A model generated the notes under the pieces. It searched no databases. It saw only the letters and a list, made by a program, of their open reading frames with translations, and was not told where the DNA came from. A DNA stretch of 64,000 bases from Candidatus Magasanikiibacteriota bacterium (lineage in GTDB: Bacteria; Patescibacteriota; Patescibacteriia; Magasanikbacterales; UBA922), in the NCBI GenBank assembly GCA_041665025.1, contig JBAYJP010000005.1, positions 11,056 to 75,055 of the forward strand, given 5' to 3'. Both the position numbers and the translations under genes were made by a program. Below are positions 1,330-55,684 of this stretch, piece by piece (within the stretch, counting starts at the first letter, position 1; each line of letters starts with the position of its first letter).

Positions 1330-2697
1330 ATGCCTATTGTATCCCACAATCCAACGACAGGAAAAGATATACAGTCATTTGAAGAACTTTCAATTGATGA
1401 AATTAACGCACGCATAGAATTATCACAGAGCGCATTTCAACATTGGCGTATTGTTTCGTTTGCAGAGCGTTCAGAAAAAATGCATACGCTTGCGACATTA
1501 TTACGTGAAAAAAAATATGAACTGGGTAAACTCGCAACTCTTGAAATGGGTAAGCCTATTACTCAAGCCGTGGGAGAAATAGAAAAATGCGCATGGGCAT
1601 GTGACTATTATGCAGACGATGCAGAGCATATGCTTGCACCCGAACATGTTTCTGCGGATTACGCAGAAAGTTATATACGTTTTGATCCTTTGGGAGTTAT
1701 ACTTGCGATAATGCCGTGGAATTTTCCGTATTGGCAGGTATTTCGGTTTGTAGCACCCGCGCTCATGGCAGGGAATGTTGGTCTGCTCAAACATGCATCA
1801 AATGTTCCCCAATGCGCGCGTGCTATTGAACATATAATTGAGGAAACGGGTTTTCCAAAAGGCGTATTTCAAACACTTCTGGTTGGTTCTGCGAAAGTTG
1901 AACATATTATCGCGCATGACTATGTGCAAGCAATTACGCTTACGGGAAGTGAACACGCAGGGTCTGTGTCTGCGTCGCAAGCCGCAAAGCTTATTAAAAA
2001 GTCGGTATTGGAATTGGGCGGTAGTGATCCATTTATTGTGTTATCTGATGCAGACATTGTGCGTACGTGTGAATTTGCGACAGCTGCGCGCTTGCAAAAC
2101 GCGGGACAAAGCTGTATTGCAGCCAAACGTTTTATCGTCGTTGAGGATCGTTACGACGAATTTATTCAAAATTATCGTGAACAATTTAGCCGATATATTG
2201 TTGGCGATCCTATGGACGAAAAAACTCAGCTTGGCCCTGTTGTTTCTCAGGCAAGTATAGAAGAATTGAAACGCCAGATTAACGAGAGTGTTTTGAAAGG
2301 CGCTGAAATCGTATACGGCGGAAAACAATTAGATAGAGCTGGTTATTTTTTTGAACCAACAATTGTTTCGCATGTAACCAAAGGAATGCCTTTGTATGAC
2401 GAGGAAGCATTTGGGCCAGTAAGTGCAGTGATCATTGTGCACGATGAAGAAAAAGCAATACAAGTAGCCAATGATACGCGTTTTGGTTTGGGAGCGTCTA
2501 TTTGGACAAAAGATATTGAAAAAGCACAAAAACTTGCATCTCATATTGAGGCAGGTAGTGTGTTTATTAATGGCATGGTAAAATCTGATCCCCGGCTTCC
2601 ATTTGGCGGAATAAAAAAATCTGGTTTTGGACGAGAATTATCACATTATGGAATAAAAGAATTTGTAAATGTAAAAACAGTGGTAGTAAATAAATGA
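1330..2697 (+). CDS. NAD(P)-dependent aldehyde dehydrogenase, succinate-semialdehyde dehydrogenase-like
   Basis: 455 aa. ALDH family motifs LELGGSDPFIV, catalytic Cys region QNAGQSCIAAKRF, and C-terminal PFGGIKKSGFGRE. TGA stop. Confidence 0.8.
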   Translation: MPIVSHNPTTGKDIQSFEELSIDEINARIELSQSAFQHWRIVSFAERSEKMHTLATLLREKKYELGKLATLEMGKPITQAVGEIEKCAWACDYYADDAEHMLAPEHVSADYAESYIRFDPLGVILAIMPWNFPYWQVFRFVAPALMAGNVGLLKHASNVPQCARAIEHIIEETGFPKGVFQTLLVGSAKVEHIIAHDYVQAITLTGSEHAGSVSASQAAKLIKKSVLELGGSDPFIVLSDADIVRTCEFATAARLQNAGQSCIAAKRFIVVEDRYDEFIQNYREQFSRYIVGDPMDEKTQLGPVVSQASIEELKRQINESVLKGAEIVYGGKQLDRAGYFFEPTIVSHVTKGMPLYDEEAFGPVSAVIIVHDEEKAIQVANDTRFGLGASIWTKDIEKAQKLASHIEAGSVFINGMVKSDPRLPFGGIKKSGFGRELSHYGIKEFVNVKTVVVNK

Positions 2698-2745
2698 TGT
2701 TTTGACAAATTAGATTATAATTTATACATTTGTTAATGATAAAAA

Positions 2746-2785
2746 AACAACCTCGATTGATTCGAGATTGTTTTTATTTTTCTTC
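2746..2785. terminator. Hairpin aacaacctcga-ttgat-tcgagattgtt flanked by an A-run on the left and a T-run on the right. Bidirectional terminator candidate.
   Basis: 11 bp stem with 1 mismatch and a 5 nt loop. TTTTTATTTTT follows on the plus strand and AAAAAAA precedes it, which is the T-run for the minus strand. Confidence 0.4.
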
Positions 2786-2846
2786 CGCCCTCACATTTCT
2801 CTACAAATATATTTATAAAGAAAGGGGATTGGTAGGGCGGGAGAGA

Positions 2847-3140
2847 CTACTTTCTCTGGCAGACGCGGGAGATGGACTCCCACGTGTTGACGAGGAAGCC
2901 CTTGAGGCTTCTCAGGACGTGGAACGTGTAGTTCCACGTGTCTACGAATAGGGTGGCGAGAGGGCCGCCGAGGAGCTCGGCGGCGCAGCCGAAGAAGATT
3001 CCCTCGATCAGGAGGGCGGCGGGGAATTCAAGGAGTCCGAAGACTCCTCGTCGTTCGCAGGCGACCGCCGTGTAATAGGCGGCGATCCCGAACAGCGTTG
3101 TGAGCGCTAAGAGCGCTCGGATTTTCGCTTTGCGTTCCAC
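2847..3140 (-). CDS. Small GC-rich hydrophobic protein, possibly GlsB/YeaQ/YmgE-like. GTG start.
   Basis: About 96 aa with two hydrophobic segments separated by ERRGVFG. Codons are strongly G/C-ending (GCC, CTC, ATC, GGC), unlike the flanking genes. An AGGAGT Shine-Dalgarno sits 4 nt before GTG at 3138-3140. The six-frame ORF is longer (2847..3191). Confidence 0.5.
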   Translation of the reverse strand: MERKAKIRALLALTTLFGIAAYYTAVACERRGVFGLLEFPAALLIEGIFFGCAAELLGGPLATLFVDTWNYTFHVLRSLKGFLVNTWESISRVCQRK

Positions 3141-3173
3141 GCAGACTCCTTTTTTGCCAGGGTTTGAGAAAAA

Positions 3174-3202
3174 ACAATACCAGAAAAACATGATATTGTC
3201 AA
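3174..3202 (-). promoter_or_regulatory. Sigma70-like promoter for the small GC-rich gene (TTGACA-17-TATTGT on the minus strand)
   Basis: Reverse complement of 3197-3202 is TTGACA and of 3174-3179 is TATTGT, with a 17 nt spacer. Lies 35 to 60 nt upstream of the GTG. Confidence 0.4.
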
Positions 3203-4235: not shown

Positions 4236-4262
4236 TCAGACGTAGGAAAGATTCCTCGCTAC
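4236..4262. repeat. Copy of the short repeat TCATTCCGAGCG-TAGCGAGGAATC in reverse orientation, just upstream of glnA
   Basis: gattcctcgctacgctcggaatga is the reverse complement of tcattccgagcgtagcgaggaatc. Related copies lie at 12521-12556 and 12616-12638. Confidence 0.5.
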
Positions 4263-4282
4263 GCTCGGAATGAGAAAACTAT

Positions 4283-5623
4283 ATGCCCCATGCATACACC
4301 AAGGAGGAAGTTCTCTCGCTATGCGAGAAAGAACGAGTCAAGTTTGTAGATTTGCAGTTCACCGATTTACTCGGTCAACTCAAAGCGGTAACTATTCCTA
4401 TTGAAAAACTGGGAGAGGGAATAGATAGCAATGTGTGGTTTGATGGTTCTTCAATTGAAGGATTTGCGCGTATATCTGAGAGTGATATGTATTTGAAATT
4501 GGATCTTTATACGTTTGCCGTGTTGCCTTGGAGTAAAGAAAGTGTGAATGTAACCGCCCGTTTATTTTGTGATGTGTACAAGCCAAATGGCGAGCCGTAT
4601 GAAAGCGATCCGCGTTATATTTTGAAACAGCAGATTGCTCGGGCAGAACGTATGGGATATGTCTATTATTGCGGGCCAGAGTTGGAATTTTTTCTTTTGA
4701 AACGTGAAAATGGAAATATTGTGCCTATGCCGCATGACCACGCCGGGTATTTTGACCAGGCGACTGATGCGGCAACAGAAGTTCGCAAAGAAATGACCAA
4801 TGCATTGCAAGAACTTGGTATAGAGGTAGAAGCTTTGCATCATGAAGTGGCCGATGGCCAGCATGAAATAGATTTCAAATATGGCGATCCCCTTACAACC
4901 GCAGACAATGCAACCACATTCAAATATGCGCTCAAAATGATTGCAGCAAAACATGGGTTGCATGCGACGTTTATGCCGAAGCCATTTTTTGGAATTAATG
5001 GCTCGGGCATGCATGTGCATCAAAGTATCTTTACCGGAGGCAATAATGCATTTTATGATGCAAACGACGCGTATGGCTTGTCTGAATTAGCGCGATATTT
5101 TATTGCAGGCCAGCTCAAACATATCAAAGCCATGAATGCAGTTCTAAATCCGCTCGTAAACTCATACAAGAGATTAGTGGTAGGGTACGAAGCACCGGTG
5201 TATTTGTCATGGGGACAGACCAACCGCTCAGCACTTATCCGAGTTCCACGCATAAATCCAGCTCGGCCAAAGGCAACGCGAGCAGAACTTCGTTGTCCAG
5301 ACCCTTCGGCTAATCCTTATTTAGCATTTGCCGTCATGCTCGCCGCAGGGTTGGATGGCATAGAAAATAAACTCATGCCACCTACGGCAGTCGAAGAGAG
5401 CGTGTATGAATTTTCGGAGGAAGATATGAAGAACCGCGGTATTGAAACATTGCCCGCAGATTTGTATGGTTCACTTCGCGCTTTGGCAAAAGATGAATTA
5501 ATAAAGAATGTGTTGGGTGATGTCACTTACGCGAAATATTATGCCATCAAAATGAAAGAATGGGATGAATTTAGAATTTATGTAACGGATTGGGAGCGGG
5601 ATAGGTATTTGGGCGTGTATTAA
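4283..5623 (+). CDS. glnA: Glutamine synthetase type I
   Basis: 446 aa. Motifs GPELEFF, KPFFGINGSGMHVHQS and SWGQTNRSALIRVP. Confidence 0.9.
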   Translation: MPHAYTKEEVLSLCEKERVKFVDLQFTDLLGQLKAVTIPIEKLGEGIDSNVWFDGSSIEGFARISESDMYLKLDLYTFAVLPWSKESVNVTARLFCDVYKPNGEPYESDPRYILKQQIARAERMGYVYYCGPELEFFLLKRENGNIVPMPHDHAGYFDQATDAATEVRKEMTNALQELGIEVEALHHEVADGQHEIDFKYGDPLTTADNATTFKYALKMIAAKHGLHATFMPKPFFGINGSGMHVHQSIFTGGNNAFYDANDAYGLSELARYFIAGQLKHIKAMNAVLNPLVNSYKRLVVGYEAPVYLSWGQTNRSALIRVPRINPARPKATRAELRCPDPSANPYLAFAVMLAAGLDGIENKLMPPTAVEESVYEFSEEDMKNRGIETLPADLYGSLRALAKDELIKNVLGDVTYAKYYAIKMKEWDEFRIYVTDWERDRYLGVY

Positions 5624-9729: not shown

Positions 9730-10920
9730 ATGCGCACATTATTATACAACATCAAGACAAGCGAACTAACACCAGGCGGTATACTGCGTCTGACGGCTGT
9801 TCCGATGCGTCCACGAGATAGGATGTATTATAAACCAGGACAGTACGCCATGATTGCGTATGAACTTTCAAAAGAATACCAAAAGTTTCATTCCTTTAGT
9901 ATCGTAAGCAGTCCGCTTGATGAACATATTTCGTTTGCTATCAAAGTGTCTGGTCCATTCACGCAGTCACTCGCGAGTTTACCTATAGGTTCTCTTATCG
10001 CAGTGCGTGGTCCATATGGCTCTTTTGTTTTGCGTGAACACGATACCAAAGATAGTGTACTTTTTGCTGCGGGTATTGGCATCACACCATTTGTGAGCAT
10101 GTTGAGGTACGCACATGAGACACAACAGCCTCAGAATATTCATTTATTATATAGTGTTCGATCGTCATGTGATGTTCCATTTATTGATATTATCAATCAT
10201 ATTGGAGAGGATAATTCGCGGATACGTCCAACCATTACTGTCACCGGAGGCGAAGATATTGTGCCCCATGGTTTTATAAAAGGAAGAGTTTCAAAAGAAC
10301 TTATTGAGTCCATAATTCCACGTTCCATTCATGCAACCCGATTTTATATATGTGGTCCATCAGTATTTATTCACGCTGTAGAAGATATGCTGACTGAGTT
10401 AGCTGTACGTCAAAAATATGTATATACCGAAGATTTTGTTCCTTCGGCACGCGTATTATGGAAACAGCCAGTACCGCTTGTAGCAAGTACGGCAGCTATT
10501 GCCGCGTCGGTTTTTGTTTTTTCCCTTGCCACAAATGCGCACGATGTCTCTGCGTTTGCAGATAAATCTTTCAATCGGCTTAATACAATATTTAATGCGA
10601 CAGATGTAAATGCCGCGGTTACTAAACAAAGAGAACAAGTGTTGTCACAAGAACAATATGAAACATACAGCGTGCCGCAAATTACCACAGTGCTCGTGCC
10701 AAGGCAGACGGCTGAGCAGATCAGTGTTATGGAACAAACAGTAGTGACAAAACAAGTGACTGCACAGCCGATACCGCAAGCAGCTCCGGCAGTTGTCCAA
10801 AATCCACCGCGCTCTACAAGTCTAGCACCTCAACAAGTTGCAACTCCTGCTCCCGCTGCTGTACAGCCAAAACCAGTCATCATGCCCACTCCGCCGCCTC
10901 CACGAACACAGGTGTCATAA
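9730..10920 (+). CDS. FNR-type FAD/NAD(P)-binding oxidoreductase module with a C-terminal TM anchor and a Pro/Gln-rich tail
   Basis: FAD-binding RxYS-like motif HSFSIVSSP and an NAD-binding motif. A TM segment AAIAASVFVFSLA near the C terminus is followed by a PQ-rich tail PAAVQPKPVIMPTPPPP. Confidence 0.6.
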   Translation: MRTLLYNIKTSELTPGGILRLTAVPMRPRDRMYYKPGQYAMIAYELSKEYQKFHSFSIVSSPLDEHISFAIKVSGPFTQSLASLPIGSLIAVRGPYGSFVLREHDTKDSVLFAAGIGITPFVSMLRYAHETQQPQNIHLLYSVRSSCDVPFIDIINHIGEDNSRIRPTITVTGGEDIVPHGFIKGRVSKELIESIIPRSIHATRFYICGPSVFIHAVEDMLTELAVRQKYVYTEDFVPSARVLWKQPVPLVASTAAIAASVFVFSLATNAHDVSAFADKSFNRLNTIFNATDVNAAVTKQREQVLSQEQYETYSVPQITTVLVPRQTAEQISVMEQTVVTKQVTAQPIPQAAPAVVQNPPRSTSLAPQQVATPAPAAVQPKPVIMPTPPPPRTQVS

Positions 10921-10995
10921 AAATTATTCTAACTTATACCAATTGTTCCAATTGGTCGAGACAAATATTAATTTCAAATAGATTAAGCCTTTATT

Positions 10996-11499
10996 ATGAG
11001 AAAAAAATATCTCCACATATACAGTTTTTTAGCAGTTTTTCTTATTGCTTTTTTTGCGTGTGCGCCGTCGTTATACGTGCATGCAGAAGATGAGGACGAG
11101 GCTTTCAAACAAGAAATAGAGCGTGTTCGTGAAGAACAAAAACAAGAGCTTGAAAGAGAGCGTGAAGAAGAAAAAAAAGAGGATGAGTACGAAGCAGAAA
11201 GAGAGGATGAATATGAAGATGAAGATTACTTTGAAGGGCCTCAACAAGTCCAGCCACAACCCGAACCTATTGTCGAGGAACAGCCGCTCGAACAACCAGT
11301 GGCACAACAACCAATTATGACTCAAGTAACTGAAACAGTCCCCACAACTCGCGTAGTTGAAAAGCCCGTAATACAAATGGTAGAACAATATCAAACAACG
11401 TATGTAACGCAATATAGAAAGACAAATAACTATATTGTGAGTGATGTAAATATGAATGGCGTAGTTGATCAATTTGAATTGATCGTGGCAGGTAGTTAG
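10996..11499 (+). CDS. Secreted highly acidic protein (Glu/Asp-rich) with a Pro/Gln linker
   Basis: Signal peptide MRKKYLHIYSFLAVFLIAFFACA; an EDEDE/EREREEEKKEDEYE low-complexity stretch; C-terminal DVNMNGVVDQFEL. Confidence 0.4.
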   Translation: MRKKYLHIYSFLAVFLIAFFACAPSLYVHAEDEDEAFKQEIERVREEQKQELEREREEEKKEDEYEAEREDEYEDEDYFEGPQQVQPQPEPIVEEQPLEQPVAQQPIMTQVTETVPTTRVVEKPVIQMVEQYQTTYVTQYRKTNNYIVSDVNMNGVVDQFELIVAGS

Positions 11500-11570
11500 T
11501 GTGGTATTGAGTAGTTTAGTTATCTAAAATTCTTTTAAAATTTTGAATTCCAAATTAAAAATTTACGAGT

Positions 11571-12539
11571 ATGTATTGGACATTCGGCTTTGATGCCTGG
11601 GATACAACGATTTCCGGCACGGTAGATGTCGGAGAAAAGTATGACGAATCGACGTTGGCTGATTTGGAACAGCAATTAAAAGCTGACGCAGAAATGTACG
11701 CGAAGATATGTTCACGTTTTGATAACGCAAGTGAGATATCGCAGTTGAATGAACAAACTGATAACGAAGTGGTTGTGAGTGAACGACTGTCTGATATGTT
11801 GGAAAAGGCGCAAAAGACCTATAGGGAGACACACGGCATATTTGACCCTACAATTTTGAAAGCTCTTGAACATAGTGGGTATGATAAAACATTTTTGAAT
11901 ATCTCTGATGATGATCCATCAACCCATATATACGAAAAACGTGATTTGATTGTGAGACAACACGCGGGACGTCCCCAGTTTAGTGAAATAAGACTACACA
12001 AAGATAAACACAGCGTATATATGCCGCTTGGCATGCGGATTGACCTTATGGGAATTGCAAAAGGGTATTGGGTAGATTATGCGGTTGAACAATTTTTTTC
12101 TGAATATCAATCATTGTGGCTTTCCGCAGGTGGAGATATATATGTGAAAGGCATGGATGAAAAACAAGAGCCGTGGAAAATTATAGTGCAAGATCCGTTT
12201 GACCTTTCAAATAATATCGGCTATTTTACGCATACAGCCAAAAAAGATTTTGGTGTTGCGACATCGGGTATTACGAAGCGCATGGGTATGAGTGGGGCAG
12301 GTAAATGGCATCATATTATTGATCCACGTACTGGCTTGCCATCAGAAAGTGATGTCGTATCAGCTACAGTTTGCGCGCCGAGTGTGGCAGATGCGGATGT
12401 GTATGCCAAGACTGCGGTTATACTCGGGTCTCACCAAGCGCATTTATTTTTTTTATCACGTCCGGAATGTGAGTATGTGCTTGTGGATGTGAATGGGCGA
12501 GTGTATTATTCTCAAAACTTGTCATTCCGAGCGACCTAA
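11571..12539 (+). CDS. apbE: FAD:protein FMN transferase (ApbE family)
   Basis: ApbE motifs IDLMGIAKGYWVDYA, LSAGGDIYVKG and GAGKWHHIIDPRTGLP. Confidence 0.8.
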   Translation: MYWTFGFDAWDTTISGTVDVGEKYDESTLADLEQQLKADAEMYAKICSRFDNASEISQLNEQTDNEVVVSERLSDMLEKAQKTYRETHGIFDPTILKALEHSGYDKTFLNISDDDPSTHIYEKRDLIVRQHAGRPQFSEIRLHKDKHSVYMPLGMRIDLMGIAKGYWVDYAVEQFFSEYQSLWLSAGGDIYVKGMDEKQEPWKIIVQDPFDLSNNIGYFTHTAKKDFGVATSGITKRMGMSGAGKWHHIIDPRTGLPSESDVVSATVCAPSVADADVYAKTAVILGSHQAHLFFLSRPECEYVLVDVNGRVYYSQNLSFRAT

Positions 12540-12640
12540 TGGAGTCGAGGAATCTCTTTTTAAATCACCGAGTGACGCATAGAAAAGGGATCCCTCGATT
12601 GCGCTCATTCGTCCCTCATTCGCTTCACTCGGCATGACAA
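12521..12640. repeat. Imperfect long inverted repeat built from two copies of the TCATTCCGAGCG...GAGGAATC motif family
   Basis: gtcattccgagcgacc...tcgaggaatc at the left; gatccctcga...cactcggcatgac at the right is its near reverse complement. Overlaps the apbE stop and fills the spacer to the next gene. Confidence 0.45.
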
Positions 12641-24602: not shown

Positions 24603-25661
24603 ATGCGAGGTAGAGACATGGTGTGGAGGGTGATACTTTCCACTATCATAGGAAAAGAAGAGGCCTCACAGTACGAAGTACTGAAAGTCTCTAATTCAGG
24701 GGTTAGTGGAACATGCGTAGTAATCGTCGCGGATCGTAGAACCGGCAAGCGGTATGCGGTCAAGTACGGTGAAAGTAAGGTTCCACTGACAGAACAGGCA
24801 CAAAACACCCGTCGGATGGCTGAGCTATTCGAGGATGTCAGAATACCTCGAATAGTTCTCTGCAGTCCTCAGCTCCTCATGATGGATGCTGTGGAAGGAG
24901 AGACATTGCAGGAAACAGTCGTGAAGGGGATTTACCCAGCTACGAGCCTCATAAAAATTTTTGAGGCAATACTTCGTGCATTTACGGCCGTGTGGAAAAA
25001 GACAGCACAGCCGTATGATGCGGGTGTGGAGCTCCGTCGTGACCCCAAAGGAAGAATTGAGCGTATATGCAGTAGCTTGTGTGAACACGTTTGTGTAGAC
25101 TTGTCTCTTTGTTCATTCAGGGAGACACCACTGTATGTCAATGGTGTACGCTGTGGTGAACTTGGAACAATGTTTCAGGAACTGACCACTGGCTACAAGC
25201 CTCCTCGCAACATAGTCGAATGTCATGGAGATCCAAATGCCGACAACATCATGATCGACAGCCACAAAGATTGGTGGCTTATCGACATGGAGTGGGCTGG
25301 CTTGCATGATTGGAGAATCATGATGAGCCAGCTCATAGGTTGGTGGATCTCGAATGCTACGTACCTCACGAATGGCACGCCTACATGTAGAGTCCGCAAT
25401 AATCGAATTGAGCTTGACTACCGCATCTCTATGCATCCCGTGGCACAGATGCTCATGGAGATAGCGTGGAGATATGCGGCAGAAGTGGCTCAATCTTTGG
25501 GTGAAGTTGACTGGGAAAGACAAATCCAGTATCAGCTCGGAACCCTCTTGCTGAGCCATGTACGGTTTGCGGAGCAAAGAAACCGCTCCGAATACCGTCT
25601 TGTTTTGCTCGGCGAGGCATTCAAGTTCCTCAACAGGGACGCCTGCCTTAGCCGGCCATAG
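24603..25661 (+). CDS. Aminoglycoside-phosphotransferase (APH)/protein-kinase-like fold phosphotransferase, moderately GC-elevated
   Basis: Catalytic loop ECHGDPNADNIMID (Brenner HGDxxxxN) and the DFG-equivalent WWLIDMEWAG. Judged by eye, about 50% GC against about 40% for the neighbours. Confidence 0.55.
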   Translation: MRGRDMVWRVILSTIIGKEEASQYEVLKVSNSGVSGTCVVIVADRRTGKRYAVKYGESKVPLTEQAQNTRRMAELFEDVRIPRIVLCSPQLLMMDAVEGETLQETVVKGIYPATSLIKIFEAILRAFTAVWKKTAQPYDAGVELRRDPKGRIERICSSLCEHVCVDLSLCSFRETPLYVNGVRCGELGTMFQELTTGYKPPRNIVECHGDPNADNIMIDSHKDWWLIDMEWAGLHDWRIMMSQLIGWWISNATYLTNGTPTCRVRNNRIELDYRISMHPVAQMLMEIAWRYAAEVAQSLGEVDWERQIQYQLGTLLLSHVRFAEQRNRSEYRLVLLGEAFKFLNRDACLSRP

Positions 25662-27655: not shown

Positions 27656-28303
27656 ATGTTTAATTACGTATTTATAGATTTTGACAAAACCATTTTTGAC
27701 TGTTTTCAGTTTGAACAAGACATGTGGAAGGTAGCAGAAGAGCGAAAAATTTCGAAGAAAGATTATATAGAAACATATAGACAAGCGATTCATTCGCGAA
27801 CAAAAGATGTATATGATTATACGTTTGAAGGACACATACAGCTTTTGGAATTGAGAGGGTATCATAATCTCGACGGCATGCTGGATGCGTGGGATACATT
27901 GTTGAAAAATAACTATTTGTTTGAGGGTGTTGAAGCATTACTTGGATTTTTGCAGAAAAATTCAAAACATCTGATATTGTTGACTGCGGGGAATAAAAGT
28001 TTTCAGATGAAAAAGATTTCTAGTGCGCCTATACAAATATTTTTTGAAGAAATTGTTGTTTTGGACGGGCATAAGGAAATATATTTGTCTGGTTTGAATA
28101 CACATTTTGGCGGCAGTCTATTCATCAATGATAGCATGAGAGAAAATAATATATTAAAACAAACATTTCCTGATTTAACTATCGTCGTAAGATTTGAGAG
28201 TCGTGATGAACATAACTATACAGAAGAACAGATGAAAGAGTTTGGCGCGCTGTATTTTGTGTCATTGAAAGATATGCTTGAGCATTTTAAACAAATTACA
28301 TAA
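27656..28303 (+). CDS. HAD superfamily hydrolase
   Basis: Motif I FIDFDKT immediately after the proposed ATG at 27656. The six-frame ORF starts earlier and overlaps the upstream gene. Confidence 0.55.
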   Translation: MFNYVFIDFDKTIFDCFQFEQDMWKVAEERKISKKDYIETYRQAIHSRTKDVYDYTFEGHIQLLELRGYHNLDGMLDAWDTLLKNNYLFEGVEALLGFLQKNSKHLILLTAGNKSFQMKKISSAPIQIFFEEIVVLDGHKEIYLSGLNTHFGGSLFINDSMRENNILKQTFPDLTIVVRFESRDEHNYTEEQMKEFGALYFVSLKDMLEHFKQIT

Positions 28304-28334
28304 TATATCAATATTTTTTTTAATCTTGTCGCGT

Positions 28335-29492
28335 ATGAAAGCGCTTATATACGATGCAACAAAAGGGCCTTGGTCGCAAACACGCGGATTTTGGATGTCT
28401 GAAATAGAAAATCCTGTACTTGGGGCGCAAGAAAAAGAGCATGTGATAGTAAAAATGAAATATGCGGGTTTTTGTGGAAGCGACCGTGGGATCTGGTCGC
28501 GCGTTTCGTTTGGAGAAATGATAGAATCATCTTTGCGTACAGAGGGCAAGAGCCAGAGAACTATTGGGCATGAGCTTTTGGGAGAAATAGTAGAAATCGG
28601 CGCAGATGTACAAGAAAAATATAGTTTGCGTATAGGTGATATTGTTTCAGCAGAATCCCACATAACATGTGGCACCTGTTATCAATGCGCGCACGGAGAT
28701 AAACATGTATGTGCAGATGATATTATTATTGGTATTGCCAAAGATGGATGTTTTGCAGAGTATGTGAAATTACCGGCAAAAATTATGTGGAAAACAGATG
28801 TTTCAAAAATTGATCCGCGCATTGGAGCGATTCAAGAGCCGTTTGGCAATGCCGTGCACGCGTGTACGCAAGTTGATTTGAAAGATAAAACAGTCGCTGT
28901 CTTTGGAAGCGGTGCAATTGGCTCGCTCGTTATCATGGTTGCCAAAGGGATGGGGGCAAAAAAAATCATTGCAATAGATACAAGCGACGACAAACTTGAT
29001 ATGGCGCGCGCGGTGGGCGCAGATGAGACCGTTACACTAAACATATCGCCCTTGTCTGACGCAAAACCATGGCAACATAATATATCGGTAACTAAACGTA
29101 TCAAAGAATTGACCAATGGCGTAGGCGTTGATGTGGCTATGGATATGGCAGGTCCGAACGCAAGCGTAAATAACGCAATTCAGTCAGTGCGTCGCGGAGG
29201 GCATGTTGTGTTATTTGGCCTCAAGTCTGGAGATTTTGTCATAGAAAATTTTGAGACTATGATCCGCAATGGCGTACAGATTCACAGTGTTATTGGTCGG
29301 CAAATTTGGGAAACATGGGAGACGACAAAGAAATTGCTTGAAGATCCAGCAACTGGGATTCAAGAAAAAATAAAAAAATATGTGATGAAAGATTTTGAAG
29401 GATCAGTTGTAAAGTTTCATGAATTTGAAAGGGAGAGTTTTGAGGAAAAGATGAAGGAGTATCCGAAGTTGATATTTGATTTTTTGAATTAA
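28335..29492 (+). CDS. tdh: L-threonine 3-dehydrogenase (zinc ADH family)
   Basis: MKALIYD...YAGFCGSDRGIW...GHELLGEIVEIG; zinc ligands CGTCYQCAHGDKHVC; directly followed by kbl. Confidence 0.7.
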   Translation: MKALIYDATKGPWSQTRGFWMSEIENPVLGAQEKEHVIVKMKYAGFCGSDRGIWSRVSFGEMIESSLRTEGKSQRTIGHELLGEIVEIGADVQEKYSLRIGDIVSAESHITCGTCYQCAHGDKHVCADDIIIGIAKDGCFAEYVKLPAKIMWKTDVSKIDPRIGAIQEPFGNAVHACTQVDLKDKTVAVFGSGAIGSLVIMVAKGMGAKKIIAIDTSDDKLDMARAVGADETVTLNISPLSDAKPWQHNISVTKRIKELTNGVGVDVAMDMAGPNASVNNAIQSVRRGGHVVLFGLKSGDFVIENFETMIRNGVQIHSVIGRQIWETWETTKKLLEDPATGIQEKIKKYVMKDFEGSVVKFHEFERESFEEKMKEYPKLIFDFLN

Positions 29493-29589
29493 TAGAACGC
29501 GAATAGAACGAATTAAACTAATCAAAACTAATTCGTTCGGATTCGTCGGATTTGTTTAATCAGTGTTCCATTATTATATGTATCTAAAA

Positions 29590-30765
29590 ATGAAAGAGCT
29601 CTTACAAGGAGAACTAAGCAAAATCAAAGAAGCAGGTTTTTCCAAAGATGAACGTATTTTGGAAACTCCACAAGGTGTTGAAATAGTAACAAACGGGAAA
29701 AAAGTTTTGAATTTTTGCGCAAATAATTATTTAGGATTGGCAAATCATCCAGAAGTAGTACAGGCTGCGCATGACGCACTTGATACCTGGGGATATGGCA
29801 TGAGTTCAGTTCGTTTTATTTGTGGAACCCAGCAACAGCATAAAGATTTAGAAAAGAAAATCAGTACATTTTTGGGAACCGAAGACACTATATTATATTC
29901 ATCATGTTTTGACGCAAATGGTGGATTGTTTGAAACGCTTCTTACTGATCAAGACGCGATTATTTCTGATCAATTGAATCATGCATCCATTATTGATGGG
30001 GTGCGACTATGTAAGGCAGAGCGTTTTAGATACGCGCATAGTAACATGGAAGAACTGGAAACTATTTTGAAACAAACGCAAGTAAAAAGATTTCGTATGA
30101 TTGTGACTGATGGCGTGTTTAGTATGGATGGTGACACGGCTAATTTAAAAGGCATTTGTGATTTAGCAGAAAAATATGACGCTATTGTTGTAGTGGATGA
30201 CTCACACGCAACGGGATTTGTAGGCGAACATGGCAAGGGATCTGCGGAATATTGTGGTGTCGAAGGCCGGGTAGATATTATTACGTCAACTCTTGGTAAA
30301 GCACTTGGGGGAGCCAGTGGAGGGTTCACTTCTGGACGAAAGGAAATTATTGATTATCTCCGTCAGCGATCTCGCACCTATTTGTTTTCAAATACACTGG
30401 CGCCTGTTATTGTGGGTACGTCACTTAAAGTATTTGATTTGCTTTCAACAACGGCCAGTTCGCTTGCAAAACTCCGTGAAAATACTACATACTTCAGACA
30501 AAAAATGTCAGAAGCAGGGTTTGAACTCCATGGAGTAGATCATCCAATTGTTCCTGTCATGCTCTATGACGCAAAAGTTGCAAAAGAGTTAGCTACCAAA
30601 TTACTTGATGAAGGAATATATGTAATTGCGTTTAGTTATCCGGTTGTGCCTGAAGGACAAGCACGTATTCGGGTGCAGATTTCGGCGGCACATGAGCGTG
30701 AACATTTAGATACGTGTATTGAGGCGTTTAAGAAGATTGGGAAAGAAATGGGGATATTGAAATAA
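29590..30765 (+). CDS. kbl: 2-amino-3-ketobutyrate CoA ligase (glycine C-acetyltransferase)
   Basis: [33 protein letters not shown] and PLP-lysine [13 protein letters not shown]. Confidence 0.8.
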
Positions 30766-30799: not shown

Positions 30800-31819
30800 A
30801 TGTCACGTCAATTTTTGACCGGTCACGAAGTCGTGGTACAGGCATGTATAGACGCAGGTGCTACACATATGTTTGGTTACCCGATAACTCCTGGCACAGA
30901 AATACTTACCGGGTGGATCAAGCGCGCGCAAGAAAATAAAAATATGCACTATTTGCAAACTGAAGATGAAATAGCTGCAGGATTTATGGTTGCAGGAGCT
31001 ATTATGGCAGGTGAAAAGGCATTTACGGCAACAGCGGGACCTGGTACGACACTCATGCAAGATGCCATGAGCATGGCAGATGGTATGCGACTGCCATTTG
31101 TCGTCATTGTGGGACAGCGTGGTGGACCAAGTTCGGGCACAGTTATTTATTCTCAACAAGAAGTGAATCTTGCTATTCATGGGGGAAATGGTGAGGGTTT
31201 ACGGCTCGTATATTCACCATCTGATGTGAAAGAGCTGTATTGTGTTACACGACTTGCATTTAACAATGCGTGGAAATACAGATTTCCAAATGTTGTGTTG
31301 ACTGATGGATATTTGTTGAAAACAAAACAAGGTGTTGAGCTTGATACTGATATTGAAAATATTGAGGCAACTCCTTTGGTTTCGGATAAGACACAAAAAA
31401 ATATTAGAAATATTTATACGTTTGAAGAAGAATTGTATGAAGAGTTGGGCAAGCAGAAAGAAGATTTTGATGCGATGGCAAAAGAAGTCATAAAGTTTGA
31501 AAGTTATAAAGTTGAAAGCTGCGAAGAACTGATTGTAGCCCACGGTATTGTTGGAGCGGCGGCGAAGGATGCTGTTGATGAATTGCAAAAACAAGGTAAG
31601 AAAGTCGGATTGTTTCGGCCGATCACGTTAAGTCCGTTCCCAAAAGAGGAATTAAATAAATTAGCACAGAATGTTAAACGAATTGTTATTGTAGAATCTA
31701 GTTTGGGTCAGTTGCGAGATTTGGTAAAACAGAATTTGGAGGTTGATGTGAAGATCGAGGGATTGTATAAGCCCGCCGTCGGAATAGAAACCGAAGAAAT
31801 TGTGAAAATGTTCAGGTAA
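30800..31819 (+). CDS. 2-oxoacid:ferredoxin oxidoreductase alpha subunit
   Basis: LTGHEVVVQACIDAGATHMFGYPITPGTEIL...ATAGPGTTLMQDAMSMA. Confidence 0.65.
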   Translation: MSRQFLTGHEVVVQACIDAGATHMFGYPITPGTEILTGWIKRAQENKNMHYLQTEDEIAAGFMVAGAIMAGEKAFTATAGPGTTLMQDAMSMADGMRLPFVVIVGQRGGPSSGTVIYSQQEVNLAIHGGNGEGLRLVYSPSDVKELYCVTRLAFNNAWKYRFPNVVLTDGYLLKTKQGVELDTDIENIEATPLVSDKTQKNIRNIYTFEEELYEELGKQKEDFDAMAKEVIKFESYKVESCEELIVAHGIVGAAAKDAVDELQKQGKKVGLFRPITLSPFPKEELNKLAQNVKRIVIVESSLGQLRDLVKQNLEVDVKIEGLYKPAVGIETEEIVKMFR

Positions 31820-31835
31820 TACGTATCAAATTATT

Positions 31836-33062
31836 ATGTCTGAAAACAAAAATATTTTAGGAGATTTACAACACATTAGAGAAATTGCAAATTTTAGACG
31901 TGAACAAGGTCATTTGCCAACTCATATAAGAAGATCAAAAGAGGAAATGCACCAAGTCAATAGAATTGGAAAAATAAGAAGGCGGTTTAAAGATGGAACC
32001 TTGCCCGATATAGTTCAGAAGAGAGTTGAAGGAGTTGGCGTACGATTAGAACCTGGAAGAGAACGGGAAGAAAATATTAGAGATAGAGTCAAAGCATACA
32101 AATTGTTTGTAAAGAAAACCGGCCGTAAACCTTCTGAATTATCTGATGATCCAAACGAAAGGAAGCTGTCTGATTTTATTAGAAGACTTCGATTGGGATA
32201 CCGAAATGAACAAAGACAAGATGCAGGAGAAGATATTGTAGGCTGTGCTAAACTTCCTGAAGATAGAAAGGATGTTGTTTTAAAAGCAGGTATCATATTA
32301 GAACCTTCAAAAGAACGAGAACGATTATTTGAGGAGGATTTACAAGCAGTTGTGGATTGGAGAGTTGAACACAAAAAATTACCAAGCCAGTATTCATCCC
32401 ATAAGAGAGAAAAATATTTAGCAAGCCGTTTACGTGTTTGGAGATGTTCTTATGCAAACATGAAAGTTCTTGATTCTGGAGAAGTGCCAAGTTCTCATAA
32501 TCGTTTGTCACCGGATAAAATGAAGTTGTTAGAAGATAACGGACTTATTGTCAAAAAGGAAAAGGATTTTTATAACAAAGCAGATGAAGTCCTAGGCTTT
32601 CTAAAGATTCATGGTCGGCTTCCAAGTAGCAATTGGAAAAACGTTTATGGAAGAGAGAGACAGTTAGGTCAACAAATATCGCGTTGGAGACTTGGCTATC
32701 TTGAGGAGGTAAGAAGGTTGTCGGGGAATCCTATGAAAACAAGACGTAGGTTGATGACCAATCATTTGAAATTTCTTGTTGAGAAGGGTGTATTATCTGA
32801 TGATTTTCATCTGATTGAACTTCTAAGTAACAGACGGATGGTTAGACCTATTTCAGAAAGAGACAGTATGATTTGTTTCCCGAAAAAGACAGAGATGAGT
32901 ACCCACCAATGTGGGAAAGATTATATGAATGCTAATGCACTTATGTCTAAAGATGACGTATGTTTTGGGTGTAGGCAAGGTGGCGCCATCCGTGATGGTA
33001 TCGCTAGTAGTCAAGAATTTACACGAGGTAAGAGAACCAAACTAGGAATTATTGATAAATAA
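31836..33062 (+). CDS. Basic Arg/Lys-rich protein with about four helicase-associated (HA)-domain-like repeats and a C-terminal Cys/His cluster, inserted between the alpha and beta genes
   Basis: Repeats such as FRREQGHLPTHIRRSK...; FVKKTGRKPSELSDDPNERKLSDFIRRLRLGY; FLKIHGRLPSSNWKNVYGRERQLGQQISRWRLGY. C terminus CFPKKTEMSTHQCGKD...DDVCFGC. Arg is encoded mainly by AGA/AGG, unlike the flanking genes, which use CGN. Confidence 0.5.
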   Translation: MSENKNILGDLQHIREIANFRREQGHLPTHIRRSKEEMHQVNRIGKIRRRFKDGTLPDIVQKRVEGVGVRLEPGREREENIRDRVKAYKLFVKKTGRKPSELSDDPNERKLSDFIRRLRLGYRNEQRQDAGEDIVGCAKLPEDRKDVVLKAGIILEPSKERERLFEEDLQAVVDWRVEHKKLPSQYSSHKREKYLASRLRVWRCSYANMKVLDSGEVPSSHNRLSPDKMKLLEDNGLIVKKEKDFYNKADEVLGFLKIHGRLPSSNWKNVYGRERQLGQQISRWRLGYLEEVRRLSGNPMKTRRRLMTNHLKFLVEKGVLSDDFHLIELLSNRRMVRPISERDSMICFPKKTEMSTHQCGKDYMNANALMSKDDVCFGCRQGGAIRDGIASSQEFTRGKRTKLGIIDK

Positions 33063-33067
33063 AATAT

Positions 33068-33739
33068 ATGAGTCATTTTTCAAAATTCTGTCCAGGCTGT
33101 GGTCAACCCGTTATATTGCAGACGCTCTATCGCATTTTGCAAGAATTAAAATTGGAAGAAAAAGCAGTACTTGGTTTGGATATTGGATGTGCTCTTTTGG
33201 CATGGGATTTTTTGGCAATTAATACCTTCCAAACCCATCATGGACGCGTAACTCCAACTATGGTTGGATTCAAACGCGCCAATCCAAACGCACTTACATT
33301 TGCATATACCGGAGATGGTGGAGCATACGCGATCGGGTTACAAAGTATTTTACACGCGGCTTTACGCAATGATCCCGTTACGGTGATTGTTTCAAACAAT
33401 ATCGTGTATGGTATGACCGGGGGCCAAACCAGTCCGACTACAGTGAAAGGGCAAAAAACTGACACGTCTCCATTGGGCAATGAGCAGGAACCATTTTTTG
33501 GTCCTGAATTATTACGAACTATAAATAAAAAAGTATATATTGCGCGTACTGCTATGAATGATATAAAACAGCTGAAAGAATATTTAACAAAAGCGATTGA
33601 AGCACAACAGCAAGGTAATTTTTCATTAGTTGAAGTATTAAGTTTTTGTCCAACGAACTGGAAGACAAAAGGAATTGAAACAAATAAATTTTTGGAAGAG
33701 AGGTTGAAGCCAGTATTTGTGACCGGAGAAATATTATAA
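33068..33739 (+). CDS. 2-oxoacid:ferredoxin oxidoreductase beta subunit (TPP-binding)
   Basis: FCPGCGQP N terminus; TGDGGAYAIG...VIVSNNIVYGMTGGQTS. Confidence 0.7.
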   Translation: MSHFSKFCPGCGQPVILQTLYRILQELKLEEKAVLGLDIGCALLAWDFLAINTFQTHHGRVTPTMVGFKRANPNALTFAYTGDGGAYAIGLQSILHAALRNDPVTVIVSNNIVYGMTGGQTSPTTVKGQKTDTSPLGNEQEPFFGPELLRTINKKVYIARTAMNDIKQLKEYLTKAIEAQQQGNFSLVEVLSFCPTNWKTKGIETNKFLEERLKPVFVTGEIL

Positions 33740-33749
33740 ATACTAGATA

Positions 33750-34253
33750 TTGAATATTATGATATTAAAAATTTTATTATCTGGCGACGGAGGTCAGGGA
33801 ATACAATTTATGTCAGATGTGATTTGCAAAGCGGCCTTTGAAAAAGAATGGTTTGTTTCTCATATTCCGAATTATGGTTTGGAACAGCGCGGCGGAATTT
33901 CACTCGCATTTATTCAAATTGCGGACAAAGAAATTGCTTACCCACGCTTTACGAAACCCGATATTATGGCTGTGTTGTCTCATCAGGCGCATGAACGGGT
34001 TAAACAATTTGTAAATGATGAATGCAAAATGCTAAATATCGATAATTACGAAGAAATATTGAAAGAACAAAAAGTCCCCGTGCAAAGTTACAATATTTTC
34101 TTTCTGGGATTATTAGCAAATTTCTTGGAAGAGGAAAATATTTGTAAAAAGGAAGATATTTTTAAGTTGATTGAAAAGAAGTTGAGTGTAAAACCGGGGT
34201 GGGAGGAGAATAAACGAGTATGGGAATTTTCAATTTCAAATTTCAAATTTTGA
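33750..34253 (+). CDS. 2-oxoacid:ferredoxin oxidoreductase gamma subunit
   Basis: ILLSGDGGQGIQFMSDVICKAA...EQRGGISLAFIQIADKEI. Confidence 0.7.
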   Translation: MNIMILKILLSGDGGQGIQFMSDVICKAAFEKEWFVSHIPNYGLEQRGGISLAFIQIADKEIAYPRFTKPDIMAVLSHQAHERVKQFVNDECKMLNIDNYEEILKEQKVPVQSYNIFFLGLLANFLEEENICKKEDIFKLIEKKLSVKPGWEENKRVWEFSISNFKF

Positions 34254-53952: not shown

Positions 53953-55302
53953 ATGTTTTTGTATTTAGTCTTAATCGTAATCCTTATGAACAACTACCAC
54001 ATCAAACTTACAGAAAAAGATATCCCAGAGTCATATTTGAATCTTTCATATTATCTAGACAAATACTACGGCAAACTTCCTGATCCCCCGTTGCATCCGG
54101 GTACAAAACAACCTGCTGGCCCGCAAGATTTGTCCCCCATATTTCCGATGGGCGTGATTATGCAAGAAGTAAGCTTGGACGAGTTTATTCCTATCCCCGA
54201 CGAAGTGCGTGAATTATACAAAATGTTTCGTCCGTCTCCGCTTATTCGCGCGTATAGATTGGAAAAAGAATTGGACACGCCGGCGCATATCTATTACAAA
54301 TACGAAGGCGGCAATGCAACTGGTAGCCATAAATTAAATAGTGCTTTAGCCCAAGCATATTACAATAAGCAGGAAGGTGTTGAGACAATCGTGACTGAAA
54401 CGGGGGCAGGGCAGTGGGGTTCTGCGTTAAGCATCGCGTGCCATTATTTTGGGCTCAAGTGCAAAGTATTTATGGTGCGTATTTCATACGAGCAGAAGCC
54501 ATATCGTAAAGTGATTATGAAGATGTATGGATCAGACGTCTATTCAAGCCCTTCAATTCAAACAGAATATGGTCGTAAAGTTTTGGAACATGATCCAGAG
54601 ACGCCCGGTAGTCTTGGTATAGCTATTAGTGAAGCGCTCGAGCTTGCAGTACAAGATGAAAAAACAAAATACGCGCTTGGCAGTGTACTTAATCATGTCT
54701 TGCTTCATCAAACAGTAATTGGACAAGAAGCAAAAAAACAAATGGAACTTGCAGGAGAATATCCAGATATGGTAATCGGATGCTGTGGAGGAGGAAGCAA
54801 TTTCGCAGGCATTGCATTTCCATTTATTGCAGATACATTGTCTGGTGTGGAGACAAGCACTCGCTTTATTGGCGTAGAGCCGGTATCGTGTCCGTCGCTT
54901 ACCAAGGGAGAATACAAATACGATTTTGGTGATACTGCACAAATGACCCCACTTCTCAAAATGAAAACGTTAGGTTCGGATTTTATTCCAAGTAAGATTC
55001 ATGCAGGCGGACTTCGCTATCATGGTATGGCACCGCTTGTTTCGTTTTTGCATGAAGAAAAATTTATCGAAGCGCGCGCGTATGATCAATTGGAAGTATT
55101 TGAAGCAGGTACGCAGTTTGCGCGCACTGAAGGAATTATCCCGGCTCCGGAATCATCGCATGCAATAAAAGCAGCAATAGATGAGGCGATGAAGTGCAAA
55201 GAGAGCGGGGAAGAAAAAGTTATATTGTTTAATTTATCAGGGAATGGATTACTTGATTTGCAGGGATATGATGATTACTTAGCGGGGAAGTTGAGGAATT
55301 AA
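53953..55302 (+). CDS. TrpB-like PLP-dependent enzyme (tryptophan synthase beta-2 type)
   Basis: Long TrpB2-type N terminus. [11 protein letters not shown] is the PLP-lysine region and [16 protein letters not shown] the glycine-rich loop. Confidence 0.75.
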
Positions 55303-55304
55303 AA

Positions 55305-55330
55305 AACAACCTCGCTTTTGCAAGGTTGTC
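55305..55330. terminator. Hairpin caacct-cgcttttgca-aggttg preceded by an A-run. Shares the AAAAACAACCTCG left flank with the hairpin at 2746.
   Basis: T-run on the minus strand; lies 70 nt past the stop of the small GC-rich gene. Confidence 0.4.
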
Positions 55331-55399
55331 GTTCTTTCCTCTGTTTCCTGTAATCAAGAAACAAAGGAATGGAAGCTGGGAGGTAGGTCATTCCCCAGC

Positions 55400-55576
55400 T
55401 TAGCTCCGCTCGGGGGTGCGGAACAGGCGCCACTCGAGGATGGCGCCGACGATGCCAAAGGCAATGGCGCCGAGGATGGCACCAGGCTTGCCTTCGCCCG
55501 GTCCCACGAGTGTGGACAGCGCGGCGCCAGCAAAGGCACCGGCTACCGCCAAGTGGGAAGTAATCAGACCTTCCAC
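55400..55576 (-). CDS. GlsB/YeaQ/YmgE-like small membrane protein (Transgly_assoc-like), GC-rich with a GTG start
   Basis: VEGLITSHLAVAGAFAGAALSTLVGPGEGKPGAILGAIAFGIVGAILEW matches the YeaQ pattern PGKDGGG...ILGIVGA..GGW. AAGGAGG lies 6 nt before the GTG. Codons are strongly G/C-ending. Confidence 0.5.
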   Translation of the reverse strand: MEGLITSHLAVAGAFAGAALSTLVGPGEGKPGAILGAIAFGIVGAILEWRLFRTPERS

Positions 55577-55684
55577 GGTTTTCCTCCTTTCCGTGGAAGA
55601 ACACACTCGTTACTAAGCGGGATGTCCGTTTTTCACATGTGTGTTGTTGATAGTCTATACGTTTATAGATCTCTAGTCAAAGAT

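Follow-up and report, generated by a model that had tools for sequence, protein, structure and literature searches.

The helicase-associated (HA) domain, defined by Pfam family PF03457, is a three-helix module of ~60–70 residues that occurs in tandem arrays. The first HA-domain structure to be solved was the nuclear magnetic resonance structure of BVU_0683, whose title says that it 'indicates domain binding to DNA' (Mills et al. 2013, cited in PMC12191111). HA modules are reported as fusions to PLD-type nucleases of defence systems (PMC12191111) and to TniQ target selectors (bioRxiv 10.1101/2025.07.27.667033); a literature link between HA arrays and Patescibacteria was searched for and not found. 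Here we describe a gene, termed X, in a stretch of 64,000 nucleotides (nt) from a Candidatus Magasanikiibacteriota bacterium (contig JBAYJP010000005.1 of assembly GCA_041665025.1, positions 11,056 to 75,055), referred to below as the window and numbered from its first letter. X lies between the alpha and beta genes of a 2-oxoacid:ferredoxin oxidoreductase (OFOR) operon. It encodes a divergent HA-repeat protein with four tandem PF03457-type modules, and it is a lineage-specific insertion into this conserved operon. With modest confidence, we lean towards X being an acquired stand-alone, non-enzymatic, multivalent and putatively DNA-binding protein that is expressed with the OFOR operon and is not a subunit of the enzyme.

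A sequence-only reading of the locus had reported an Arg/Lys-rich open reading frame (ORF) of 408 residues between the alpha and the beta/gamma genes. The ORF exists as claimed, and its gaps to the neighboring genes are exactly 16 and 5 nt. The protein has a mass of 47.7 kDa, a pI of 9.9 and a net charge of +27 (12.0% Arg, 9.3% Lys), and each of its HA units is basic. The identical protein is present at NCBI as 'MAG: hypothetical protein WCW16_04690 [Candidatus Magasanikbacteria bacterium]', on a 440-kb contig. Its repeats were assessed by a leave-one-out test, in which a hidden Markov model (HMM) made from three units scores the fourth, with 1000 shuffles per unit as the null. The parts of X, with the scores in this test and, where given, the AlphaFold 2 confidence (pLDDT), are:

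31836..33062, + strand: gene X, basic protein of 408 residues with an ATG start; four HA repeats and a C-terminal module with four cysteines (Cys4).
31851..32063, + strand: HA unit 1 (residues 6–76), canonical length without an insertion; 9.5 bits, against a shuffle maximum of 6.7.
32064..32315, + strand: HA unit 2 (residues 77–160), long type, in which 13 residues are inserted between helices 2 and 3; 37.5 bits.
32316..32555, + strand: HA unit 3 (residues 161–240), long type; 33.0 bits; pLDDT 88–95.
32556..32804, + strand: HA unit 4 (residues 241–323), long type; 28.0 bits.
32805..33059, + strand: C-terminal region (residues 324–408), with the Cys4 core C347-x11-C359-x16-C376-x2-C379 at nt 32874..32972.

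No shuffle reached the score of the real unit for any of the four units (0/1000 each), and the best shuffles scored between 6.7 and 9.1 bits. The repeats are visible only at the profile level, since self-BLAST of X revealed no internal repeats. In the DNA, a 25-nt direct repeat with a spacing of 252 nt (84 codons) marks the ends of units 1 and 2. Units 2–4 represent a long variant of ~84 residues, in which the 13 inserted residues have the consensus ...YRNEQxxxxGxxPxxxxRL.... Unit 3 is the only unit of X that matches the Pfam HA family by itself (PF03457 at residues 163–234, E=1.3e-4 within the whole protein and 2.7e-3 as a separate unit). Unit 2, when modelled alone, gives three helices with a pLDDT of 83.8 and aligns to canonical HA domains by hhalign. 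The best unit match of unit 1 is P0045, an 84-residue protein with a precomputed PF03457 match; in the AlphaFold 2 model its pLDDT is only 45–74. The model of the entire protein has a mean pLDDT of 72, with units 2–4 at 80–95 and three helices per unit.

The homology to HA domains is secure, as judged from four comparisons. A profile of the four units of X matches 16 canonical HA units in hhalign (98.8%, E=6.4e-17, 65 columns), the HMM of X units recovers the repeats of canonical HA proteins in register, and 12 of the 27 units of the X-type family match PF03457 individually. Foldseek searches of BFVD with the model identified giant-virus superfamily 2 (SF2) helicases, HA-containing phage proteins and proteins annotated as 'Helicase-associated domain', with E-values from 1e-7 to 4e-4. 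A profile match, three-helix modules of the expected kind and a tandem array are thus all found in X. The earlier proposal of about four HA-like repeats is borne out by the leave-one-out test, the hhalign result and the fold matches, with a Pfam score that falls below the gathering threshold; the close relatives P0003, P0007 and P0008 exceed the Pfam HA cut-off.

To place X among other proteins, an exhaustive phmmer search was run against 1.84 billion cluster representatives, which gave 46 matches at E<=1e-3. The closest relatives are P0002, P0003, P0005, P0007 and P0008 (at most 33% identity to X, E-values from 2.6e-49 to 1.7e-17). They contain three to five long HA units, preceded by a conserved N-terminal domain of ~270 residues with the motif PYHxIxFPxFxRxxFVCNxxxNATYxVP...W...K...L...F.M...W and invariant R, W, F, P and Y positions (loci L200, L071, L069 and L067). 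This N-domain has no match in Pfam, PDB, PHROG or PADLOC. The distant phmmer matches are canonical HA arrays, some of them joined to ResIII/Helicase_C and to nuclease domains of the Mrr or T5orf172 type. Sequence and profile searches of the PDB with the HA unit profile, the C-terminal region of X and the N-domain of the relatives returned nothing. Ten relatives that were looked up, including the nearest, are singletons or form tiny clusters at the 90% identity level (15 billion proteins). A word-indexed homology search retrieved only X when queried with X and only P0045 when queried with the 27-unit alignment; such an index is insensitive for this family.

The genes of these relatives occur in varied contexts. 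P0008 is found in the order PGI-racemase-[P0008]-glyoxalase-ProB, P0007 adjoins a PPDK gene, P0003 lies near Wzy_C and a TrwB-like ATPase, and P0002 is flanked by two unannotated ORFs. A further relative, P0004 (276 residues), consists of three long HA units only.

In the window, X is embedded in the gene order TrmB-HAD-[Tdh-Kbl-alpha-X-beta-gamma]-GlmS-HAD-HAD-CofD. The OFOR genes and the two spacers next to X are:

30800..31819, + strand: OFOR alpha gene, 339 residues, intact; Pfam POR_N (1.5e-42) and PFOR_II (2.2e-17), NCBIfam VorB/KorA-type.
31820..31835, + strand: alpha-X spacer of 16 nt, TACGTATCAAATTATT, A/T-rich, from the alpha stop codon TAA to the ATG of X.
33063..33067, + strand: X-beta spacer of 5 nt, AATAT, from the X stop codon TAA to the beta start.
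33068..33739, + strand: OFOR beta gene, 223 residues, intact; TPP_enzyme_C (5.7e-21) and NCBIfam beta-subunit families.
33750..34253, + strand: OFOR gamma gene, 167 residues; Pfam POR (7.6e-17); syntenic with relatives and followed by glmS.

A scan with the alpha subunit, using one genome per species, yielded 65 loci, of which 13 are of the Magasanikbacteria type, with alpha subunits that align over their full length to that of the window (58–75% identity). All 13 have the order alpha-beta-gamma, usually followed by glmS, and none of them encodes an HA unit. The gap between the alpha stop and the beta start is 3–9 nt in eight of the 13 loci (e.g. taaATATatg, taaTAATatg and taaTTTTatg); the remaining five have palindromic spacers of 46–111 nt, and two of these were folded and form long hairpins. 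The closest homologue of the beta subunit among 5.8 billion proteins is only 78% identical, and there is therefore no sister species to compare. The two closest metagenomic relatives also lack X. The contig L076 (beta 78% identical) has Kbl and alpha as in the window, followed by a 153-nt hairpin element (-62 kcal/mol) and beta, while L075 (beta 77% identical) has an unrelated tRNA_bind gene (PF01588, 112 residues) at the alpha|beta junction (449–787). With X absent from the por loci of all 13 + 2 relatives, the claim that an extra gene had entered a conserved operon is upheld, and X is by parsimony a gain in the lineage of the window. The alpha gene also adjoins beta in the more distant operons of Bacillota, Melainabacteria and Saccharibacteria. 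The sequence between the X stop and the beta start (TAA-AATAT-ATG) resembles the ancestral alpha/beta junction, indicating that the inserted DNA starts directly after the alpha stop codon.

The window derives from a metagenome-assembled genome and X has no homologue above 33% identity, which would fit an assembly chimera or a non-coding ORF. Such an artefact is extremely improbable. Both the alpha-X and the X-beta junctions recur in a Logan contig of run SRR6484324, a separate assembly, which makes a chimera unlikely. The 1.2-kb frame is open at 37% GC (guanine plus cytosine), its homologues reach E=2.6e-49, the repeat and Cys motifs are conserved, and the distance from the X stop to the beta start keeps the ancestral spacing.

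The alpha|beta junction tolerates insertions in other lineages, including hairpin elements, a tRNA_bind gene, DUF6338-like genes and small ORFs. In Gastranaerophilales, the junction contains either a DUF6338-like membrane protein of ~215 residues (L021:4132–4791, L028:4823–5461 and L032:7100–7741) or small ORFs, and the junctions of L024 and L064 are also occupied by unrelated genes. Since unrelated cargo enters the same junction elsewhere, no specific invasion mechanism is needed for X.

The hairpin elements are found in the alpha|beta spacers of L003, L004, L005, L007 and L008, as well as at L076:2082–2234 and L075:788–871, and range from 46 to 153 nt. Folding energies were obtained for three long elements, that of L076 given above and those of L004 (-25 kcal/mol) and L005 (-20 kcal/mol). 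Elements of the L076/L075 type end in ...CGCTCGGAATGA just before the next ATG. Exact 12-mers of CGCTCGGAATGA are present in intergenic DNA of the window at 4262–4273 (+ strand), 12522–12533 (- strand) and 12626–12637 (+ strand), adjoining genes at 4283 and 12539/12651. Together, the junction elements and the copies in the window have the appearance of REP/MITE-like repeats (repetitive extragenic palindromes or miniature inverted-repeat transposable elements) that form a family in this clade.

Other parts of the neighborhood differ among relatives as well. Genes for a Tdh-like zinc alcohol dehydrogenase and a Kbl-type aminotransferase (28278–30765) lie between the HAD gene and alpha in the window; they are missing at that position in the 13 relatives from the genome collection, and Kbl is upstream of alpha only in L076. 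In L010, two additional genes separate beta from gamma, and in L012 three separate gamma from glmS. The region from TrmB-HAD to glmS is, on account of these differences, generally variable. One of the extra genes of L012, upstream of glmS (10183–11592, 469 residues), matches the 'Integrase repeat unit' family PF14882 (E=3.9e-8). It was also considered as a carrier of the N-domain found in the relatives of X and set aside, the match being marginal only (pairwise E=0.004; HMM 13.9 bits, E=0.014). In L015 (6001–6633 and 7641–10823), which has the most similar alpha fragment (79% identity), alpha is truncated after approximately residue 215. Behind it come a small ORF, a 23S rRNA gene that contains a group I intron and, further downstream, a second group I intron match. 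Either the OFOR operon is disrupted in L015 or the contig is chimeric.

The C-terminal region of X contains a second module that is distinct from the HA array. It matches two small stand-alone proteins, P0028 (60 residues, E=1.6e-5) and P0035 (91 residues, E=2e-4). All four cysteines and their spacing are kept in X, P0028 and P0035, and only the last pair forms a CxxC knuckle. No match to this region was found in Pfam, including its zinc-ribbon families, or in PDB, PADLOC or PHROG. The sequence-only reading had described a Cys/His cluster, possibly a zinc ribbon or HNH-like. The four cysteines are indeed conserved, but the histidine is not: H357 is the only His near the cluster, it is not conserved in P0035, and the zinc-ribbon families gave no match. 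An HNH endonuclease was rejected, since neither full-length X nor its last 85 residues match an HNH family in Pfam at a threshold as loose as E<=10, and there is no conserved His. The P0028 gene (L072:1964–2146) overlaps the start of a gene for a RarA-like AAA+ ATPase (2104–3030), and the P0035 gene (L074:762–1037) is one of several consecutive small ORFs, phage-like in appearance, next to a fragment of an N6/N4 DNA methylase. The C-terminus of X is probably a new Cys4 mini-domain, defined by three sequences, with predicted zinc binding and DNA-related contexts.

Four conserved cysteines in a gene packed tightly into an operon (16 and 5 nt) that has no delta or ferredoxin gene could also belong to an accessory or electron-transfer subunit of OFOR, in which the Cys4 module would hold an Fe-S cluster and X would replace the delta/ferredoxin subunit. 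We regard this as very unlikely. The relatives all run the same alpha-beta-gamma operon without X, the same Cys module is found beside a RarA-like AAA+ ATPase and a DNA methylase rather than beside redox genes, and 80% of X consists of HA modules, which are of a DNA-binding kind. The spacing C-x11-C-x16-C-x2-C is also unlike the CxxCxxCxxxCP motif of ferredoxins, which is absent from X; with no Fer4 match either, identification of the module as a ferredoxin or an OFOR delta subunit was rejected.

X differs from its neighbors in codon usage. AGA and AGG (AGR) account for 31 of its 49 Arg codons (63%), compared to 230 of 824 (28%) across the remaining long ORFs in the window (binomial P=2.7e-7). 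The deviation reported by the sequence-only reading is therefore real as regards the flanking genes, but it does not single X out as foreign: six other genes of the window reach AGR fractions of 0.52–0.79 (four with 10–25 Arg codons and two with only 5–7), and the GC content is barely lower (0.37 versus about 0.40; third-position GC 0.26 versus 0.29–0.37 in the flanking genes). A similar enrichment over neighboring genes, of 3–4-fold, is observed in the relatives of X, with AGR fractions of 0.50 for P0008 (neighbors 0.14), 0.44 for P0004 (0.13) and 0.36 for P0007 (0.11), and with P0003 as an exception (0.19 versus 0.15). Genomic context is available for five family genes, and four of these, namely X and three of its four relatives, are 2–4-fold enriched over their neighbors. 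The AGR bias is a family signature, since it recurs in relatives of X in other host genomes; it would be consistent with a mobile gene pool common to these genes, or with the codon usage of Arg-rich proteins that are expressed at a low level. Taken by itself, the bias does not date the insertion and is weak evidence of foreignness in this genome, where a few genes of native appearance have it too.

Shine-Dalgarno-like motifs are hardly used in this genome. Of the 45 gene starts of the window that were examined, 41 lack such a motif in the 25 nt before the start codon. The sequence in front of the starts is A/T-rich (...TAT/ATT/AAT ATG), and many genes lie only a few nt apart. The start of X, which is A/T-rich and without a Shine-Dalgarno motif, appears native in this respect. 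Between alpha and gamma, no terminator-like site was found and promoter-like hexamers occur at chance frequency only. No promoter, terminator or mobility function belonging to X itself could be detected, and X is therefore most likely co-transcribed with the operon.

Elsewhere in the window, three ORFs have an unusually high GC content, against a usual value of ~0.40: 2847–3191 (- strand, 0.58), 55299–55604 (- strand, 0.58) and 24603–25661 (+ strand, 0.50). The first two, both short, are possibly not genes. At its gathering threshold, Rfam identified only four tRNAs in the window (4066, 41280, 41428 and 51376) and nothing at the high-GC ORFs.

The sequence-only reading had further suggested that X is a selfish gene. 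As a presently or recently active single-gene element, X would use its HA array to recognize target DNA, in the manner of free-standing homing endonuclease genes or TniQ-HA selectors. Several properties of the family agree with this idea. Its genes sit singly between unrelated housekeeping genes (P0008, P0007, P0004 and X), the relatives looked up are singletons or tiny clusters with at most 33% identity to X, four of five genes share the AGA/AGG enrichment, HA arrays are elsewhere fused to TniQ and nucleases, and the N-domain of the relatives could be catalytic. The patchy distribution, with X absent from 15 relatives and its family in varied housekeeping contexts, is compatible with a mobile element and is not specific to one. 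X itself, however, lacks the N-domain of its relatives, and scans against Pfam, NCBIfam, PHROGs and PADLOC detected no nuclease, transposase, integrase or recombinase domain in it. The borders of X show no terminal inverted, direct or target-site repeats beyond chance, with only the TAA stop shared. Neither the 64-kb window nor ~70 related loci contain a second copy, and X has no match in IMG/VR or, by tblastn, in the INPHARED phages and PLSDB plasmids. A degenerate DNA pattern for WP...WRxx[YWF]RNxQ produced no real match in IMG/VR, and in a metagenome scan none of the 120 matches listed encodes an HA unit or an N-domain. The N-domain resembles no entry of PDB, PHROG or PADLOC, and the presence of unrelated cargo in the same junction means that no targeting is needed. 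There is no sign that X moves itself or belongs to the enzyme, and the suggestion of a selfish gene is not supported by these searches; past or present selfish activity is unlikely.

The context of P0004 introduces a different possibility. The P0004 gene (L070:2933–3763, on a contig of JGI 3300050212) is located in the order TrmB-HAD-NTP_transferase-[P0004]-GlmS-HAD-CofD, which is syntenic with the window and without OFOR genes. The proteins of the two loci are 56% (TrmB), 72% (GlmS) and 41% (CofD) identical, whereas X and P0004 share only 32%. The last units of the two proteins (X_u4 and P0004_u3) are reciprocal best matches with a score of 141, the next best scores being 93 and 109. X could accordingly be viewed as a resident regulator or DNA-binding factor of the TrmB-HAD...glmS-HAD-CofD neighborhood, which would be ancestral there and lost in most lineages; the position of P0004 between the NTP-transferase gene and glmS, the pairing of the last units and the TrmB-family regulator within the conserved neighborhood all agree with it. 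Many independent losses would be required, since 15 relatives have the same neighborhood without an HA gene. X is, moreover, inside OFOR, while P0004 is beside glmS in a locus that lacks OFOR; X and P0004 are far less similar than the GlmS proteins, and two contexts make a small sample. We consider ancestral residence improbable. Three explanations of the pattern can be given, among which two cases cannot decide: an old residence followed by repeated loss, a transfer from one related genome to another at a site prone to recombination, or coincidence. X may have a regulatory role, as the sequence-only reading also proposed.

We favor the acquisition of X as a stand-alone protein, for which the following course of events can be proposed. 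The gene would have been acquired horizontally and have entered the alpha|beta junction immediately behind the stop codon of alpha. Transcription would reach it from the OFOR promoter by read-through, and translation would proceed serially through alpha, 16 nt, X, 5 nt and beta, such that translation of beta would follow that of X. The basic HA array is expected to bind DNA and the Cys4 module to bind zinc. X would represent a rare, fast-evolving family of HA arrays encoded by single genes between housekeeping genes of uncultured bacteria.

Several observations weigh against this interpretation. The PF03457 score of X is 22.6 bits, under the gathering score of 28.4. The Cys4 module has only two homologues, and its pLDDT in the AlphaFold 2 model is 33–56. 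The AGR signature across different hosts could mean repeated recent transfer, which would fit a more actively mobile gene. The presence of P0004 in a syntenic glmS neighborhood would hardly be expected from a chance landing and gives a hint of old residence or a local function.

A broader and rather doubtful proposal, less probable than either past selfish activity or ancestral residence, is that the whole long-HA family (X and P0002–P0008) consists of single-gene mobile elements of ultra-small uncultured bacteria. Here the HA array would provide recognition and a partner domain would insert, or recruit the insertion of, the gene at short junctions. In most members this partner would be the 270-residue N-domain, and in X it would be the Cys4 module. 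Such an element would ride on the expression of the operon that it enters, and the AGA/AGG signature of the family would point to a mobile gene pool that its members have in common.

The case of X shows clearly that a junction of 3–9 nt between translationally coupled genes of a core enzyme can accept a foreign gene of 1.2 kb in a streamlined Patescibacteria genome, and the same alpha|beta junction has been entered repeatedly by different cargo. An undescribed long HA variant and a Cys4 mini-domain are new here, in a rare, fast-evolving family with a distinctive codon signature. If the family is mobile or binds specific DNA, it would give new access to gene flow and modular DNA recognition in these organisms. 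For now, X is an uncharacterised accessory protein with putative DNA binding and of modest biological weight.

In its genomic setting, X is comparable to the 'moron' genes of phage genomics, which usually have their own promoter and terminator and reside in prophages. Like these, X is one extra gene with deviating codon usage between genes that are adjacent in relatives. Unlike these, it shows neither a promoter nor a terminator signal, and its setting is a chromosomal metabolic operon.

Among described HA proteins, the TniQ-HA fusions of Tn7-family transposons place the HA module beside a DNA-targeting function (bioRxiv 10.1101/2025.07.27.667033). The parallel with X is a functional analogy only, and neither TniQ nor other transposition genes were found in or near X. 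Fusions of HA modules to SF2 helicases or ResIII, known from bacteria and giant viruses with nuclease N-termini of the Mrr or T5orf172 type and represented among the sequence matches by P0012, P0021 and P0039, have the same HA fold and provide the top BFVD matches; X has no helicase, ResIII or nuclease domain and consists of the array without such a partner. The family with an N-domain and long HA units (P0002, P0003, P0005, P0007 and P0008) shares with X the long unit and the occurrence as single genes between housekeeping genes. Its ~270-residue N-domain is absent from X, and the Cys4 tail of X is absent from the family. Also comparable are the stand-alone HA arrays of 4–8 units in bacterial proteins (e.g. 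P0006, P0014, P0020 and P0027), which like X are basic, made of tandem three-helix units and free of an attached enzyme, and which share with it the motif [FW]xxxxG[HR]xP[ST]...LGxWxxxQRxxY...LxxxxxxxLxxxG[IV]. Compared to described HA proteins in general, nothing yet indicates a new mechanism for X, and its distinguishing features are the long unit, the lack of a helicase or nuclease partner and the Cys4 tail: units 2–4 of X and those of its nearest relatives measure ~84 residues, compared to ~64–70 in canonical HA arrays, and among these HA proteins the Cys4 tail is seen in X only.

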